Positions 4,530 through 9,645 of a stretch of DNA of 64,000 nt are shown here, one piece after another. The stretch's first letter is position 1. Each line of letters begins with the position of its first letter. Origin of the DNA: Cyclobacteriaceae bacterium (GTDB taxonomy: Bacteria > Bacteroidota > Bacteroidia > Cytophagales > Cyclobacteriaceae); NCBI GenBank assembly GCA_019638395.1, contig JAHBTX010000004.1, positions 306,411 to 370,410 of the forward strand, read 5' to 3'. The notes beneath the pieces are model-generated. The model was not told the origin of the DNA. It saw nothing but the letters and a program-made list of their open reading frames with translations, and did no database searches. Made by a program: the position numbers and the translations under genes.

Positions 4530-5027
4530 ATGAAATTCAACTCGGTTAAAGAGTATTTCTTAAGGCTAAACAATACCGGCTACCAACTGATGATGGTGCC
4601 CATGATCTTGTTTATCTATCATTATGCCAGCGTTTATGCATTTACAACTCGGGTATGGATAACCGATTTAGCGATTGTTCACTATTTATTAATTGGTGTG
4701 ATTACACTTTCGTTGATATCCCTAACGGTCGTTCATTTTTTTGTACGCTCGCGCGCGATAAAAATTTCCGTACAAACGGGACTTGGATTAAAACTTGAGC
4801 AGTTGGGAAGTGTGTTGATGCAACGGTTAATTGTACTTGCACTGATAACCCTGGCAATGCCAGTGGGATTGGTACTTACACATCACATCGGGTTTGCAAT
4901 TGGATTTGCTATGCTGTTAGTGTGGTTTTTTTTGCATTGGCCCACGCCCACTCAGGTTTGTAGTTTACTTAAACTGAAAGGTGATGAAAAGGAAATGGTA
5001 TTAAGTAAGGGGGAGGCGTTTAAATAA
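4530..5027 (+). CDS. Hypothetical multi-pass membrane protein
   Basis: About four hydrophobic segments; C-terminal WPT...LKL...E motif resembles that of 58186-58659. Confidence 0.75.
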   Translation: MKFNSVKEYFLRLNNTGYQLMMVPMILFIYHYASVYAFTTRVWITDLAIVHYLLIGVITLSLISLTVVHFFVRSRAIKISVQTGLGLKLEQLGSVLMQRLIVLALITLAMPVGLVLTHHIGFAIGFAMLLVWFFLHWPTPTQVCSLLKLKGDEKEMVLSKGEAFK

Positions 5028-5030
5028 ACC

Positions 5031-5285
5031 TTATTCTTCAGTTTTTTGTAAACTTCTTAATCGTTGATTCATTAAACCAAGCAGTGTAGTTGCACTACCA
5101 AACAGGATGATTGTTCGAACATAATGATCCCCTTTTACCAAAGATATGATAACTCCAATGACCACGCCTATTAATAAGTGGCCCAATAAGTCAGCAATTT
5201 TATTTTGTGAGAATTGAATTGCCCCGAAGTCATAATAGAATTTAAGAAGCTTTCTCATACTACAATATTTTAAGAAATTATTCAT
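5031..5285 (-). CDS. Small membrane protein, candidate immunity factor, downstream of the XRE gene
   Basis: AT-rich ORF with two hydrophobic segments including GVVIG; start may be the later ATG (MRKLL). Confidence 0.5.
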   Translation of the reverse strand: MNNFLKYCSMRKLLKFYYDFGAIQFSQNKIADLLGHLLIGVVIGVIISLVKGDHYVRTIILFGSATTLLGLMNQRLRSLQKTEE

Positions 5286-5352
5286 AGTAAATGTGGTTCT
5301 TTTTGGCCAGAACTCAAAAAATATTGATTACAAAATCGTGAGAAACTCCTTC

Positions 5353-5592
5353 TTATTTCTTTCTTAACTTCTGAGTTTGAAAATTGACAAGCTCTGGAAG
5401 TGTAATTTTTAACCCCATTGAAATAGATATAAGAACATCTATGGTTGCGCAGTATTTAGCGTTTTCAATACGCTGAATTGTGATTTTAGCTAAATCTGAT
5501 AAGTCAGCTAGTTCTTGCTGACTTAGTTTTTGAGCATCCCTCAACTGCCTTAGATGAGTTCCAAAAGCTTTAATGCCGGAGGGATTCTTCAC
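5353..5592 (-). CDS. XRE-family helix-turn-helix regulator
   Basis: LRQLRDAQKLSQQELADLSDLAKITIQRIENA is a typical Cro/C1 HTH. Confidence 0.9.
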   Translation of the reverse strand: MKNPSGIKAFGTHLRQLRDAQKLSQQELADLSDLAKITIQRIENAKYCATIDVLISISMGLKITLPELVNFQTQKLRKK

Positions 5593-5618
5593 AGAGCGAA
5601 AGTCGCTCAGTGAAAAAA

Positions 5619-5650
5619 TATTTTTGGATACACATGTGTATCCAAAAATA
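5619..5650. promoter_or_regulatory. Perfect 32-bp palindrome, putative XRE operator
   Basis: TATTTTTGGATACACA|TGTGTATCCAAAAATA, between the divergent XRE gene and precursor gene 1. Confidence 0.7.
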
Positions 5651-5657
5651 AAAATTA

Positions 5658-5665
5658 TATATTTG
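5658..5665 (+). promoter_or_regulatory. Bacteroidota -7 promoter element (TATATTTG) for the precursor operon
   Basis: Exact TAnnTTTG match immediately 3' of the palindrome. Confidence 0.6.
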
Positions 5666-5775
5666 AAAAGAAGGATATGTGCATACCAAGACTTCTAAAT
5701 ACTTTGATTGAGGATTCTTAGCAGATTGAAATAATAAATTCCAATTATAAATTTCTTAAACCTAAATCCAATTCT

Positions 5776-6126
5776 ATGAAAAGAAACAAACAGAGTATTA
5801 AAATACTAGCGTTAATGCTAGTTTTCACGTTTATGGTGGTAACATCCTTCAGAGTGAATGCTTCTTCAGCATTTGGCTCAACAAGCTCAAATGTCTATAA
5901 AACAACATCGAATGACAGCCAACAGATGAATGCGGTAGCTCCTAATGTCGTTGCAGCTGCATTAGTCGCGGGATTTGAAGTTGGAGTTGCTGTTGGTGCA
6001 GTTGTTGGTATAGTTTCGGGATTTGCATATCAAATGGTTACTAATTTTCTTCACGGTGTTGAGAGTATAGCATCTTTAGACTATTTGAATTATGATCCAA
6101 ATGATCTCTCAAAGTTTGATAATTAA
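5776..6126 (+). CDS. Secreted glycine-zipper peptide precursor 1 (putative SdpC/YitM-like toxin)
   Basis: Signal peptide ending RVNA; core GFEVGVAVGAVVGIVSG; tail LNYDPNDLSKFD; next to SdpA/SdpB-like genes. Confidence 0.7.
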   Translation: MKRNKQSIKILALMLVFTFMVVTSFRVNASSAFGSTSSNVYKTTSNDSQQMNAVAPNVVAAALVAGFEVGVAVGAVVGIVSGFAYQMVTNFLHGVESIASLDYLNYDPNDLSKFDN

Positions 6127-6150
6127 TAATTGACTAAACCCAAAAACAAA

Positions 6151-6480
6151 ATGAAAAATAGAAAAGTGTACTCTCTTTTGATTTTAGTTGCTATGTTAGG
6201 ATCAATAGCTATGCAGGCATCAGGAGCGTCAAGTGTTGGTTCTGTAGCGGTAAATAAGTACGATGTAAGTGCTGTTGGTACTATGAGTAAAGATGTTAAT
6301 CTCGCAGCAGCGGCAGCATTTGCTGTTGGATTTGTAACTGGACTGGCTGTTGGTGTAATTGAAGGATTTAATGTTGGAACTTACCTTGCTAATTTCTTAT
6401 ACGGTGGAGAACAATTAGCATCTTCTTTAGAGAATCTAGATTATTCTAAGAATGATCTCGCAAGATTTGATCCCAAGTAA
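6151..6480 (+). CDS. Secreted glycine-zipper peptide precursor 2, paralog of precursor 1
   Basis: Signal peptide; core GFVTGLAVGVIEGFNVG; tail LDYSKNDLARFD; ATG at 6151 preferred over TTG at 6130. Confidence 0.7.
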   Translation: MKNRKVYSLLILVAMLGSIAMQASGASSVGSVAVNKYDVSAVGTMSKDVNLAAAAAFAVGFVTGLAVGVIEGFNVGTYLANFLYGGEQLASSLENLDYSKNDLARFDPK

Positions 6481-7192
6481 TTTGACTGATCAAAAGCGAA
6501 GAGGTTCGAAATACGGTATTACCGTTTTTCGGGCTTCTTTGTATTTAGTAATTTTTCTTCATTTTTCAATTTTGACTTTGTATTTGGCTCCCTCTAATCC
6601 TGTAAACCACATTTTTAAAGTTGAGATAGGTTCTTATGTAAATCCTTTTTTTAGTCAAAATTGGAGCCTCTTTGCACCAGATCCTGTTTCAAGTAATCAG
6701 ACTTTACAAATTAAATTTATTGCTTTTAATAATGAGATCGAGAGTAAAACAGATTGGTTAGATTTAAAAGAGATGGTCCATGCAGAACGAGCCAAAAGCT
6801 TCTGGTCTCCGCTTCAAAGGTTAGAGAAATATCTTAGTGGTGTTACGCAATCTATTGTTACTGATCAAATCCACTTAAACAATTTCATAGAAACTCACTC
6901 AAACTTTAGCCAAGATTCTATAAGGGTGCTACAGGATTTATATAAAATGAATTATGGCCACAGAAGTCTTAAGTCTTATTCTCAAATCGTATTGTCAAAA
7001 TTAAACTTCGCCAAAGAATACGATAGCATAGCTGTAATGTATCGTATAGTTGATGCTAAGTTCCCACGTTTCTCCAAGCGCCATTTAGATTACCACGATT
7101 TGAATAACTATGAGATAACTTATTTTGAGTTAGACTTAGGGGTTATCAAATATAAAGATTTAGAAGATGACGGCCGAAGTTCAGAAAACTAA
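6452..7192 (+). CDS. DUF5819 / SdpA-like maturation protein
   Basis: N-terminal TM segment followed by YVNPFFSQNWSLFAPDP; precedes an HTTM gene; start may be the TTG at 6482. Confidence 0.75.
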   Translation: MISQDLIPSNLTDQKRRGSKYGITVFRASLYLVIFLHFSILTLYLAPSNPVNHIFKVEIGSYVNPFFSQNWSLFAPDPVSSNQTLQIKFIAFNNEIESKTDWLDLKEMVHAERAKSFWSPLQRLEKYLSGVTQSIVTDQIHLNNFIETHSNFSQDSIRVLQDLYKMNYGHRSLKSYSQIVLSKLNFAKEYDSIAVMYRIVDAKFPRFSKRHLDYHDLNNYEITYFELDLGVIKYKDLEDDGRSSEN

Positions 7193-8102
7193 CCAATTCA
7201 TCGGGCTATCAATTATCAGGTTCATTTTTGGCTTGATTATTTTAAAGAATATTATTTTTTATCTACCAACATCGGATTACTATTTCGGTAAAAACGGAAT
7301 TGTTCCTTGGGAGGATTTTCTGCTAATCTGCGGAACAATAAACATGTCGTTCATGACAATATTTTTTCAAAATGATTTAATGCTTAAAATTTACTTATTG
7401 TTGACAGTTGTGTTAGCATTTAATTTCTGTTTAGGAATAGGCTCAACCATAAATGGTGTAGCATTAACTATTTTTTTGTTTTTCTTAAAGTTAAGAAACG
7501 GATTAATACTTGATGGTTCTGACAATGTTATTTCAGTAGTATTGCCATTTTTAATATTTACCAATTGTTATCGTTTTTTCAATGTTCAATTGGCTTATGA
7601 TAAGTTGGAGCAAGTTTTGAGAAGTAAAGATTGGATGACAGTTGTGGACAGAGTATTTGTTTTAGCGATTAAAATTCAAGTGATCTTTGTCTATTTTTTT
7701 ACGGCTATTGCAAAATCTGGAGGAGTATTATGGCAAAATGGTACAGCTGTTTACTATACTATGCGCGTGAAGGAGTTTAATGCTACGTCATTGAATGTTC
7801 CCCTGACTCAGAATGTTTATTTTGTTGTATTTACAACTTATACTACTCAACTTATTGAAATAGCATTTGCCTTTTTAGTCTGGTTTAAAAAGACAAAATT
7901 CATAATTCTCACCATTACGGCATTATTACATGTTGGTATTTTTATCTTCATGAGAATTGATAACTTCTCTTGGGTGATGATAACCACGTATGCCGTGTTT
8001 ATAAATGATGATGAGTTTTTATCGATACATAAAGGCGTAAAACTAAGAATATCTTCTTTCTTACTCTGGAAGCAAAAAATATTAAACATAATCATCAAAT
8101 GA
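7167..8102 (+). CDS. HTTM-domain / SdpB-like membrane protein
   Basis: Multi-TM; DGSDN, YFFTAIAK..G.LWQNGTAVYYTM, LIEIAF and LHVGIFIFM.IDNFSWVM motifs. Confidence 0.8.
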   Translation: MTAEVQKTNQFIGLSIIRFIFGLIILKNIIFYLPTSDYYFGKNGIVPWEDFLLICGTINMSFMTIFFQNDLMLKIYLLLTVVLAFNFCLGIGSTINGVALTIFLFFLKLRNGLILDGSDNVISVVLPFLIFTNCYRFFNVQLAYDKLEQVLRSKDWMTVVDRVFVLAIKIQVIFVYFFTAIAKSGGVLWQNGTAVYYTMRVKEFNATSLNVPLTQNVYFVVFTTYTTQLIEIAFAFLVWFKKTKFIILTITALLHVGIFIFMRIDNFSWVMITTYAVFINDDEFLSIHKGVKLRISSFLLWKQKILNIIIK

Positions 8103-8617
8103 TTTCAATAAAGCGTCTATATGGACTAATAGTTATAGTTGCATTCTTCAATGTTGTTATTACTCGTTTTCTATGCTATTTAATAATCACAGATTATAAC
8201 GATTATTCAGCTATGGGAGAGTTCGCATTATTGAGTATCATCTTTTTTCCGGTTTGCTTAATGCTTAATACAGTAGGTTTACTTTACCTTATTCGTAATG
8301 AAGAAGTCGTGATAGATCGTAAGTTTAGGCCTGGTTTATTCTGGTTAATGGTGATCTGTTTTCTTATTTCATCTTGTGCTACATTCGGAATTGACTTTGT
8401 TTATGATCTAACTATTGAAAATAATGTATCAACATTCTTTGCTAATATGCTTTTAAACTCATTAAAAAATACTAATAGTGATGTTTCTGCTTTATTGCTG
8501 AGTACTCCATTTCTCCTTCAAAATTATATTTTTAATCTTTTCGCACTCTTATTAGCCTGGTTCATAACAGGAATGTATGTTAAGCGCATGCTGAGAAAGA
8601 GATTGACATCTGAGTAA
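8099..8617 (+). CDS. Multi-pass membrane protein, candidate immunity protein
   Basis: About four TM segments; ATGA overlap with the HTTM gene; last gene of the AT-rich island. Confidence 0.65.
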   Translation: MISIKRLYGLIVIVAFFNVVITRFLCYLIITDYNDYSAMGEFALLSIIFFPVCLMLNTVGLLYLIRNEEVVIDRKFRPGLFWLMVICFLISSCATFGIDFVYDLTIENNVSTFFANMLLNSLKNTNSDVSALLLSTPFLLQNYIFNLFALLLAWFITGMYVKRMLRKRLTSE

Positions 8618-8640
8618 GGTTTCTTGTAGAAAATACTAAT

Positions 8641-9645
8641 CTAGAAAGTTATTCCAAAACTAAACGCATTCAACTGCGGGCCTTTGTTTGCTACGAAGAG
8701 TTCGTTCAAATCGTAGTTGAAGAACAAATCAACATCATCAAAGCCAATTTGTGCGCGCAAACCGTAACGTAGGTTGTTCAGGTAAAAATTGTCGTGGTTG
8801 CGGGGTTTACGTTCAGCATCATTTTCTTTAAACACCTGTTTGCTGTAGCTGGCGATGCGGTAGCCCACATAAGGGCCAACACCTATGCGAAATGAATCGG
8901 CATTGTATCCATCAAAAAAACTAGGCTTATGTCGATTGCCTCCAAAGTCCAGCATAGGTACCAGCGATGCATTCAGGTACGTAGCCGTTAATTTACTTTT
9001 GATGAAATCTGCATCACGTGTGTCGGGCTGAAAGATTACACTATTATCATCTTTGCTCACCTGGGTTTGTGCATTTTGAAATTTGAAGTTATACCAGCTT
9101 GCGCCCAATGCCCACTCCATGTAAAACTTATTGGCGATGCGGGTACGTTGCACACTGTTAATACCCACGTACCACGATCCCCACGGTTTTACAGTGAACA
9201 AGCTATTATCCTGATCGGGGAAACCATTTTGGGTAATGTAGTTGTTGGTACCCAGATCGAAGTTCATAGAGTGATAGGTGCGTTTGCGAAACCTTTTGCT
9301 CTCTTTGTTATTGCTACTCCAATCTACACCCCAGTCTTCCTCTTTTTCGGCATCAACAGTTTCTTTGGCATCGGCAAGCCGAGCTGAATCTGTTTTTAAA
9401 TAGTCGATGGCTGCTTTTTGATGGCTGGTCGTATCTTCTTTTTCCAACTTGGCTATTAAATCTGCAATCAATTTCTGAAAATCATATTGTTTCATAGTCT
9501 CCAGATCTTTCTTGTCTTGCACGGCCAGAATCAGTTTACTGCCATTTCCTACTTTAATTACAACAGTATCGGCTGGTTTGGTTTGACTAAATCCAACCAC
9601 ACTTATCAAGGCAACCAAACAGGTCGTTATCATCTTACGCTTCAT
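8641..9645 (-). CDS. Outer-membrane beta-barrel domain protein
   Basis: Signal peptide, alternating beta-strand pattern, C-terminal FSFGITF. Confidence 0.75.
   Translation of the reverse strand: MKRKMITTCLVALISVVGFSQTKPADTVVIKVGNGSKLILAVQDKKDLETMKQYDFQKLIADLIAKLEKEDTTSHQKAAIDYLKTDSARLADAKETVDAEKEEDWGVDWSSNNKESKRFRKRTYHSMNFDLGTNNYITQNGFPDQDNSLFTVKPWGSWYVGINSVQRTRIANKFYMEWALGASWYNFKFQNAQTQVSKDDNSVIFQPDTRDADFIKSKLTATYLNASLVPMLDFGGNRHKPSFFDGYNADSFRIGVGPYVGYRIASYSKQVFKENDAERKPRNHDNFYLNNLRYGLRAQIGFDDVDLFFNYDLNELFVANKGPQLNAFSFGITF

Follow-up and report, generated by a model that had tools for sequence, protein, structure and literature searches.

HTTM proteins are required for the production or maturation of the SDP and YIT toxins in Bacillus, and SDP itself is a hydrophobic peptide that acts on membranes (PMC6818787). 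The gene clusters of the linaridins also carry an HTTM protein, whose role in maturation is assumed (PMC9927463). In a preprint, a DUF5819 protein and an HTTM-DCC1 protein are modelled together as a complex that resembles a split form of the vitamin-K-dependent gamma-carboxylase GGCX and contains a menaquinone pocket; the same work describes the related MloH as carboxylating an aspartyl residue, and names no substrate for the DUF5819/HTTM pair (bioRxiv 10.64898/2026.08.19.745780). Here we analyse a 64,000-nucleotide stretch of contig JAHBTX010000004.1 from a Cyclobacteriaceae bacterium (hereafter, the window), in which two small exported precursors, A (P1) and B (P2), are encoded directly ahead of a DUF5819/HTTM gene pair. 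P1 and P2 probably make up a two-part bacterial toxin, and they are the best candidate substrates yet for the DUF5819/HTTM enzyme. Whether positions 5353–8617 of the window are, as a unit, a horizontally acquired peptide-toxin module is a question on which we consider the evidence evenly balanced. The five genes that run in one direction are:

5776–6126, + strand: precursor A (P1), 116 amino acids (aa), no Pfam or NCBIfam family match, A-type by alignment A6
6130–6480, + strand: precursor B (P2), B-type by alignment A7, carrying the GVIEGFN signature
6452–7192, + strand: DUF5819 protein, 246 aa, Pfam PF19136 at 68.9 bits against a cut-off of 27.1 (alignments A2 and A5)
7167–8102, + strand: HTTM-domain polytopic membrane protein, 311 aa, Pfam HTTM (PF05090) at 31.5 bits against 27.7
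8099–8617, + strand: conserved protein with four transmembrane (TM) helices (4-TM protein), 172 aa, with a PF[LF]xQN motif and no Pfam or NCBIfam match

Comparison with described systems

With the DUF5819 and HTTM(-DCC1) pairs of the preprint the window locus shares the same two Pfam families, the adjacency and coupling of the two genes, and the Lys and Trp of the pocket (bioRxiv 10.64898/2026.08.19.745780). Its DUF5819 gene (PF19136) adjoins its HTTM gene (PF05090) and both products score above the Pfam cut-offs; judged by these features, the locus clearly belongs to the DUF5819/HTTM pair family. Unlike the pair in the preprint, that of the window is preceded by two conserved candidate substrates, and it has no DCC1.

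The likeness to sdpABC and yitPOM lies in a Sec-exported precursor with a hydrophobic segment that stands beside an HTTM protein and a small partner needed for the toxin (PMC6818787). The gene order in the window is reversed, with the precursors first, the partner is DUF5819 and the host belongs to Bacteroidota; the precursors are unrelated to SdpC, have no Cys, are two rather than one and carry a conserved C-terminal tail, and the locus has neither SdpI nor SdpR. Pfam and NCBIfam scans returned no family match for the precursors or the 4-TM protein, and hence neither an SdpC/YitM-like precursor nor an SdpI/YitQ-like immunity protein. The SdpB model TIGR04033 gives the window HTTM protein 43.6 bits against a cut-off of 178.4, and the SdpA partner is missing. 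We regard the locus as analogous to sdpABC and not as a member of that family because the SdpB score is below the cut-off and DUF5819 shows no similarity to SdpA.

A preliminary description of this DNA, made from its letters, had read the two products as a heteromeric membrane-disrupting toxin or as surface aggregates, by comparison with the GxxxG motifs of class IIb bacteriocins and of the Caulobacter toxin CdzC/CdzD; its account of these two systems is correct (PMC5380434). Like class IIb bacteriocins (lactococcin G, plantaricins EF and JK), the window locus encodes two different peptides in adjacent genes, each with GxxxG in a helix capable of spanning a membrane, and the gene of a small membrane protein comes next. 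The double-glycine leader and the PCAT transporter of that class are absent: the N-termini of P1 and P2 are of the Sec type and there is no ATP-binding cassette (ABC) transporter at the locus. The window precursors are also acidic and of greater length, putative modifying enzymes accompany them, and their producer is Gram-negative.

CdzC and CdzD are likewise a pair of proteins of ~85 aa with extended GxxxG zippers, borne on an island, and the Cdz system includes a small TM immunity protein (PMC5380434). Unlike the window locus, Cdz uses type I secretion and has no modifying enzymes; no cdzAB type I secretion genes are found in the locus, and the profile search with the window precursors returned their own family only. 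The linaridin clusters (LinG/CrdG) share with the window an HTTM-domain membrane protein in the gene cluster; their precursors, in contrast, are cytoplasmic leader–core peptides and an alpha/beta hydrolase is encoded in the linaridin clusters, and Pfam found no hydrolase among the scanned open reading frames (ORFs) of the window locus and its nearest neighbours. The TMcins (PMC13712780) were also considered. They are matured within the membrane, the paper makes no mention of HTTM, and they are kept as a conceptual parallel only.

Two paralogous precursors with glycine zippers

P1 and P2 are paralogs (31% identity, E 3e-11) and neither contains Cys. Both begin with a Sec-type signal peptide, for which cleavage is predicted, by the AXA rule applied by eye, after VNA29 in P1 and MQA30 in P2. 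The signal peptide of P1 (residues 1–29) is followed by an xFGS motif, a polar linker, a hydrophobic helix (residues 56–93) and a C-terminal tail; P2 is laid out in the same order, with an xVGS motif and a helix at residues 55–91. The linker that follows this short xGS(Y) motif is a polar stretch of ~25 residues, rich in Ser, Thr and Asn, which is disordered in the AlphaFold2 models. P2 is 116 aa long if read from TTG at 6130 and 109 aa if read from ATG at 6151. The ATG is the likelier start, and the database gene call (P0004) is the 109-aa form that begins with it. The zippers and tails are located as follows:

5971–6021, + strand: five-Gly i+4 zipper of precursor A, G66/70/74/78/82, within GFEVGVAVGAVVGIVSG
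6328–6378, + strand: five-Gly i+4 zipper of precursor B, G67/71/75/79/83, within GFVTGLAVGVIEGFNVG
6091–6120, + strand: C-terminal tail of precursor A, Y106-D-P-N-D110-L-S-K-F114-D115
6442–6471, + strand: C-terminal tail of precursor B, Y105-S-K-N-D-L-A-R-F-D114

The five Gly of each zipper stand at exact i+4 spacing (G66–G82 in P1, G67–G83 in P2), behind runs of Ala (AAALVA in P1, AAAAAFAV in P2) and ahead of NFLHG in P1 and NFLYG in P2. All of this had been noted in the preliminary description, together with the lack of Cys and the paralogy of the two precursors, and is borne out here: both are secreted and belong to one family. The same description called the two zippers identical, which is true of their spacing and not of their sequence (8 of 17 residues are the same in P1 and P2). 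When the sequences were shuffled 200,000 times with composition preserved, at least five Gly at i+4 arose in ~1e-5 of the shuffles of P1 and in 3e-4 of those of P2. Genome-wide, runs of at least five i+4 Gly are present in 8 of the 7,493 ORFs of at least 80 aa, and P1 and P2 are two of the eight. The zippers are far beyond chance.

The AlphaFold2 monomer models, used for helix boundaries only, show, at moderate confidence, a single long helix in each protein, with a predicted local distance difference test score (pLDDT) of ~63–74 along the helix. The predicted helix core has the hydrophobicity needed to span a membrane (19-residue Kyte–Doolittle mean of ~2.2). The best-conserved feature of the precursors is the C-terminal tail, Y-x3-D-[LF]-x2-F-D. 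In alignment A6, D115 of P1 is invariant and Y106, D110 and F114 each reach at least 90% conservation; in alignment A7, Y105 and D114 of P2 are invariant.

A rare precursor family and the range of the zipper

No Pfam or NCBIfam family fits P1 or P2. Scans of P1, P2 and ten precursors from other phyla with these libraries gave sub-threshold noise (Romo1, Gly-zipper_YMGG), and assignment to a known family was rejected. With P1 as the query, a word-seeded search across 5.8 billion proteins retrieved P1 itself only, so that an exhaustive search with hidden Markov models (HMMs) was needed. Seeded with P1, P2 and two orthologs from a Cyclobacteriaceae metagenome-assembled genome (MAG), it found 30 representatives among 1.84 billion proteins, all of them 97–118 aa long and matching over their full length. 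P1 and P2 can thus be placed, by profile, in a rare and unnamed family.

Its members share a common plan, in which a signal peptide is followed by [SA]xG[ST]Y, a linker, an Ala/Gly/Val-rich helix and a C-terminal N-Y-x3-D-F-[ST]-x-F-D-N. The window pair conforms to it throughout, with a signal peptide, the xGxY motif, the linker, the GxxxG helix, the Y-x3-D-[LF]-x2-F-D end and the order A then B upstream of DUF5819/HTTM (alignments A3, A6 and A7). The two types differ in their helices. A-type helices read ..A-Y-x-A-G-Y-x-x-G-T-x-A-H-H-x-Y-D.., or ..GAVVGxxxGxAY.. in P1 and its close relatives, and B-type helices end in G-h-h-[D/E]-G-[W/F]-N, which in P2 is GVIEGFN. One GxxxG is invariant in each type (G74/G78 of P1 among 14 A-type sequences in A6, G75/G79 of P2 among 13 B-type sequences in A7).

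Beyond this single motif the zipper varies in length. Chains of 4–6 Gly at i+4 occur in both partners of the window, L010, L126 and L128 and in representatives P0005–P0009; L098 has Gly chains of 4 and L013_1 a chain of 3, and most of the remaining members have no Gly chain longer than 2. Chains of 3–8 small residues (Gly, Ala or Ser) at the same spacing are common among the members with short Gly chains. The lengths in the two partners co-vary, with 5–6 Gly in A and 4–5 in B in the window, L010, L126 and L128 and 2 in both in most other loci, so that extended zippers are present either in both partners or in neither. Since the five-Gly zipper is absent from most members, it cannot be the essential device of the family, and, judged from these alignments, it extends a conserved GxxxG helix in a lineage-specific way and is not the core of the system. 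Its joint extension in A and B would fit mutual packing of the two peptides; gene conversion could also produce it.

An ordered pair of precursors

We read 20 family loci from genomes, MAGs and metagenome contigs. Exactly two precursor genes are present in 17 of them (the window, L010, the P0006 contig, L126, L128, L091, L093, L096, L097, L099, L103, L104, L105, L106, L110, G394 and L012). The remaining three are L098, with three precursors, the Hymenobacter locus L013, with five of two alternating types, and the L100/L101 family, with B only. The B signature G-h-h-[DE]-G-aromatic is carried by the second gene in 12 of 13 tabulated loci and by none of 15 first genes; motifs like it were read by eye in L093, L126, L128 and G394. 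Among 401 evenly sampled Bacteroidota genomes, two carry the family, both as a tandem pair. Wherever the DNA downstream of a family locus is readable, DUF5819 and HTTM genes follow.

In the two-precursor loci the A-type gene always precedes the B-type gene, and this ordered, differentiated pair is maintained at 20–30% identity. This is what a two-component product predicts, and the pattern supports such a product. The assignment of precursors to A and B rests on motif signatures and gene order because the precursor tree does not separate the two cleanly and the DNA of their signal peptides has been homogenised. A trace of the latter is seen in L099 (1009–1700), where ~80 nt of signal-peptide DNA are identical between A and B and the remainder has diverged, a pattern that indicates gene conversion between the paralogs.

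Two variants of L099 from metagenomes, L100 (135–1334) and L101, have an IS4-like transposase gene in place of precursor A, with B alone upstream of DUF5819. They are natural single-precursor derivatives of a two-precursor locus. One MAG (G028; loci L007 and L008) carries two systems, one with an A/B pair and the other with a single Gly/Ala-rich precursor of 144 aa.

The DUF5819/HTTM pair

The DUF5819 protein is predicted to have one N-terminal TM helix and an extracytoplasmic domain with a QNWxLFAPxP motif. A profile of ten locus HTTM proteins matches human GGCX in the Protein Data Bank (E ~7e-6). K183 of the window HTTM protein, at least 90% conserved across the 10 loci, lies within the stretch aligned to the VKKLD-ADW segment of GGCX, which we take to be the site of the catalytic Lys218. 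W189 is invariant across the same loci, and by this alignment both the GGCX Lys and its neighbouring Trp are conserved in HTTM. Together, DUF5819 and HTTM look like a split relative of the vitamin-K-dependent carboxylase in which the catalytic Lys is apparently kept. We know of no substrate that has been named or described for enzymes of the DUF5819 type.

Related loci are linked to a DCC1-like thiol oxidoreductase (L007 8372–8764; L091 1500–2741, fused to HTTM; L130 1504–1896 on the – strand). The window locus has no DCC1 domain or gene, and one unlinked copy is present in the genome (G000:C1:843354–843683). Because the precursors lack Cys, DCC1 may serve to recycle quinone and not to form disulfides.

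A second HTTM gene was found in the same genome at G000:C1 ~561.9–563.2 kb (L090 5904–7242, – strand). Its product is 275 aa long (34 bits to the Pfam model), and the gene is translationally coupled to that of a 174-aa partner with one TM helix and no Pfam match. No precursor-like gene lies beside this pair, which is flanked by housekeeping-looking genes and is a different HTTM pair.

A possible route to a heteromeric toxin

In the route that we propose, both peptides would be exported by Sec and then remain anchored to the inner membrane, on its outer face, by their hydrophobic helix. There, the HTTM/DUF5819 complex would recognise the conserved tail, using menaquinone. Its active site should face the periplasm; the active site of GGCX faces the lumen of the endoplasmic reticulum. 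The complex may modify the peptides, license their processing or trimming, or both, as SdpA and SdpB do for SdpC. Once set free, the cores of A and B would associate along their GxxxG faces and form a heteromeric toxin that disrupts membranes; the 4-TM protein would protect the producer against it. The context is toxin-like in several respects, namely the linked small multi-TM gene, the ABC genes in L008 and L012 and a helix competent to span a membrane.

A narrower form of this proposal would make A and B the first ribosomally made peptides to serve as substrates of a menaquinone-dependent carboxylase-like enzyme in bacteria, with carboxylation of a conserved acidic residue at the periplasmic face controlling the processing and assembly of a heteromeric A:B toxin. 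The candidate sites would be the Asp of the C-terminal F-D tail, which is invariant, together with a Glu or Asp retained within the helices. We consider this form unlikely. If it were true, it would define a new class, similar to peptides made on the ribosome and modified after translation (RiPPs), that is matured outside the cytoplasm, and it would explain the role of HTTM proteins in SDP and linaridin biosynthesis. Candidate substrates that are small and can be aligned are provided by this locus and its relatives: they have an invariant C-terminal hydrophobic-Asp tail and an invariant GxxxG and, in this clade, form a conserved A/B pair. This five-gene operon makes both the chemistry of the enzyme and the existence of a two-peptide membrane toxin in Gram-negative Bacteroidota directly testable questions.

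Points against a two-part toxin, and other explanations

Several observations weigh against the two-part toxin. The first concerns the wider set of loci defined by DUF5819: in ~27 of 78 genome loci found through this gene, one secreted precursor lies directly upstream of it. These single-precursor loci come from Myxococcota, Oligoflexia, Paenibacillus, Bacillaceae, Streptomyces, Knoellia and others. Their precursors are rich in Gly and Ala (WTWxDFG...YYAGTQAWNY...ALD) or in Ala and Arg (...ATVFDR) and cannot be aligned with P1 and P2. Two precursors were found among the distant loci in Streptomyces L031 only, as near-identical copies. Nearly all of the distant precursors end in hydrophobic-Asp within 6 residues of the C-terminus, the sole feature that they have in common with P1 and P2. 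The preliminary description had named a prevalence of single precursors in homologous loci as evidence against its two-peptide reading, and the outcome depends on the level of homology: the enzyme superfamily mostly has one precursor, and the precursor family has two in 17 of 20 loci. That reading is therefore partly supported. The enzyme pair and the conserved C-terminal tail, which it did not weigh, are the stronger mechanistic clues.

Other points on the same side come from the precursor family itself. The three precursors of L098 and the five of L013 fit the logic of one enzyme with many substrates equally well. The tree of 33 precursors is weakly supported, and in it the A and B proteins of the Cyclobacteriaceae clade group together; given this grouping and the identity seen in L099, concerted evolution could mimic co-variation between partners. 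Only a single small subclade, Cyclobacteriaceae-like, has the five-Gly zipper. The AlphaFold2 monomers are of low confidence (whole-model pLDDT ~60, predicted template modelling score 0.23). The exported forms of P1 and P2, 86–87 aa long, are acidic, with net charges of about –5 and –3, and typical pore-forming peptides are cationic. In a diderm, Sec export reaches the periplasm only, and no outer-membrane exporter is encoded in the locus. None of seven DUF5819 proteins, that of the window included, has an NCBIfam SdpA match at E ≤1. The analogy with SDP hangs on HTTM alone because DUF5819 has no sequence link to the SdpA models, and for want of such a match the label 'SdpA-like' for this partner was dropped. 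The toxin, pore and heteromer roles are putative for every member of the family.

The explanation that fares best after that of a two-part toxin treats A and B as alternative cargoes of one maturation enzyme, in the manner of a multi-precursor RiPP-like system, with each product active alone and perhaps directed at a different range of targets. It would account for the variable copy number (three in L098, five in L013, two near-identical copies in Streptomyces L031), and the enzyme pair evidently works with a single precursor in other phyla, as the ~27 distant loci attest. L100 and L101, which retain B alone after the insertion, fit it as well. Simple redundancy, however, would not keep the order of A first and B second, nor the signatures of the two types, at 20–30% identity, and even the Hymenobacter copies still fall into two alternating types. 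We judge independent cargoes to be improbable.

Less probable again is that A and B are no weapon and act in the producer's envelope or membrane, for example as carboxylated metal-binding or signalling peptides, with the tail acting as a modification or sorting signal for HTTM/DUF5819. Such a role is suggested by the acidic hydrophobic-Asp tail, which is common even to the non-homologous precursors of Myxococcota, Bacillota and Actinomycetota, by the acidity of the exported proteins and by the failure of Pfam and NCBIfam scans to find a known immunity family. It sits poorly with a locus that is island-borne, sporadic and rare, and with a tightly linked small multi-TM gene to which some loci add ABC transporter genes. 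Moreover, SDP and YIT, the HTTM-dependent peptides that have been characterised, are toxins, and the linaridins, whose clusters contain an HTTM gene, are bacteriocins.

Slightly behind it, and the least probable of all, stands the idea that the peptides stay unreleased on the producer envelope as glycine-zipper aggregates that kill on contact like CdzC/CdzD: it draws on the long, hydrophobic and aggregation-prone zippers, on a diderm producer with no dedicated exporter and on the make-up of Cdz systems (1–3 small glycine-zipper proteins and a small TM immunity protein, on islands; PMC5380434), and it is opposed by the lack of type I secretion genes in the locus and of Cdz relatives in the exhaustive profile search, by the absence of the extended zipper from most family members, and by the enzymes, since Cdz proteins need no modification and A and B are always followed by HTTM and DUF5819.

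Operon, regulator and island

The order of genes is precursor A, precursor B, DUF5819, HTTM and the 4-TM gene, with a regulator gene of the XRE family diverging from them. Consecutive reading frames overlap by 29 nt between P2 and DUF5819, by 26 nt between DUF5819 and HTTM, and by 4 nt (ATGA) between HTTM and the 4-TM gene. Two further features lie upstream of precursor A:

5353–5592, – strand: XRE-family helix-turn-helix regulator, 79 aa, Pfam HTH_3 E 2e-12
5619–5650, no strand assigned: 32-bp perfect palindrome TATTTTTGGATACACATGTGTATCCAAAAATA between the XRE gene and precursor A, found as a 14-pair stem in a terminator scan and also read directly

A divergent HTH_3 gene upstream of precursor A recurs in L093, L094 and the P0006 contig. 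The palindrome at 5619–5650 is probably the operator of the XRE protein, for which we propose it as a candidate. At the other end of the operon, the 4-TM gene is syntenic in L007, L009, L011, L091, G394 and L012, and its product is a candidate immunity or escort protein. In L008 (2505–6573) and L012 (7344–9054), genes for an ABC ATPase and permease lie downstream of DUF5819/HTTM.

GC content falls to 0.30–0.35 across ~4800–8700 of the window against 0.41–0.47 in the flanks, and the DUF5819 gene is carried by 3 of 61 related genomes. The closest relative is a Cyclobacteriaceae MAG, which makes the host a member of the Cytophagales. At the low-GC left edge of the island, 4530–5285 holds two small membrane-protein ORFs (165 aa on the + strand, 84 aa on the – strand) with no family match.

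Four mud-metagenome libraries labelled RNA-Seq yielded contigs 100% identical to the window, at 2–5x, over 6121–6876, 7047–7272 and 7935–8260. They cover precursor B, DUF5819 and parts of HTTM, and none covers precursor A. Since the libraries may not be RNA, these contigs are not counted as evidence of expression. The organism, or the island of the window, lives in mud.

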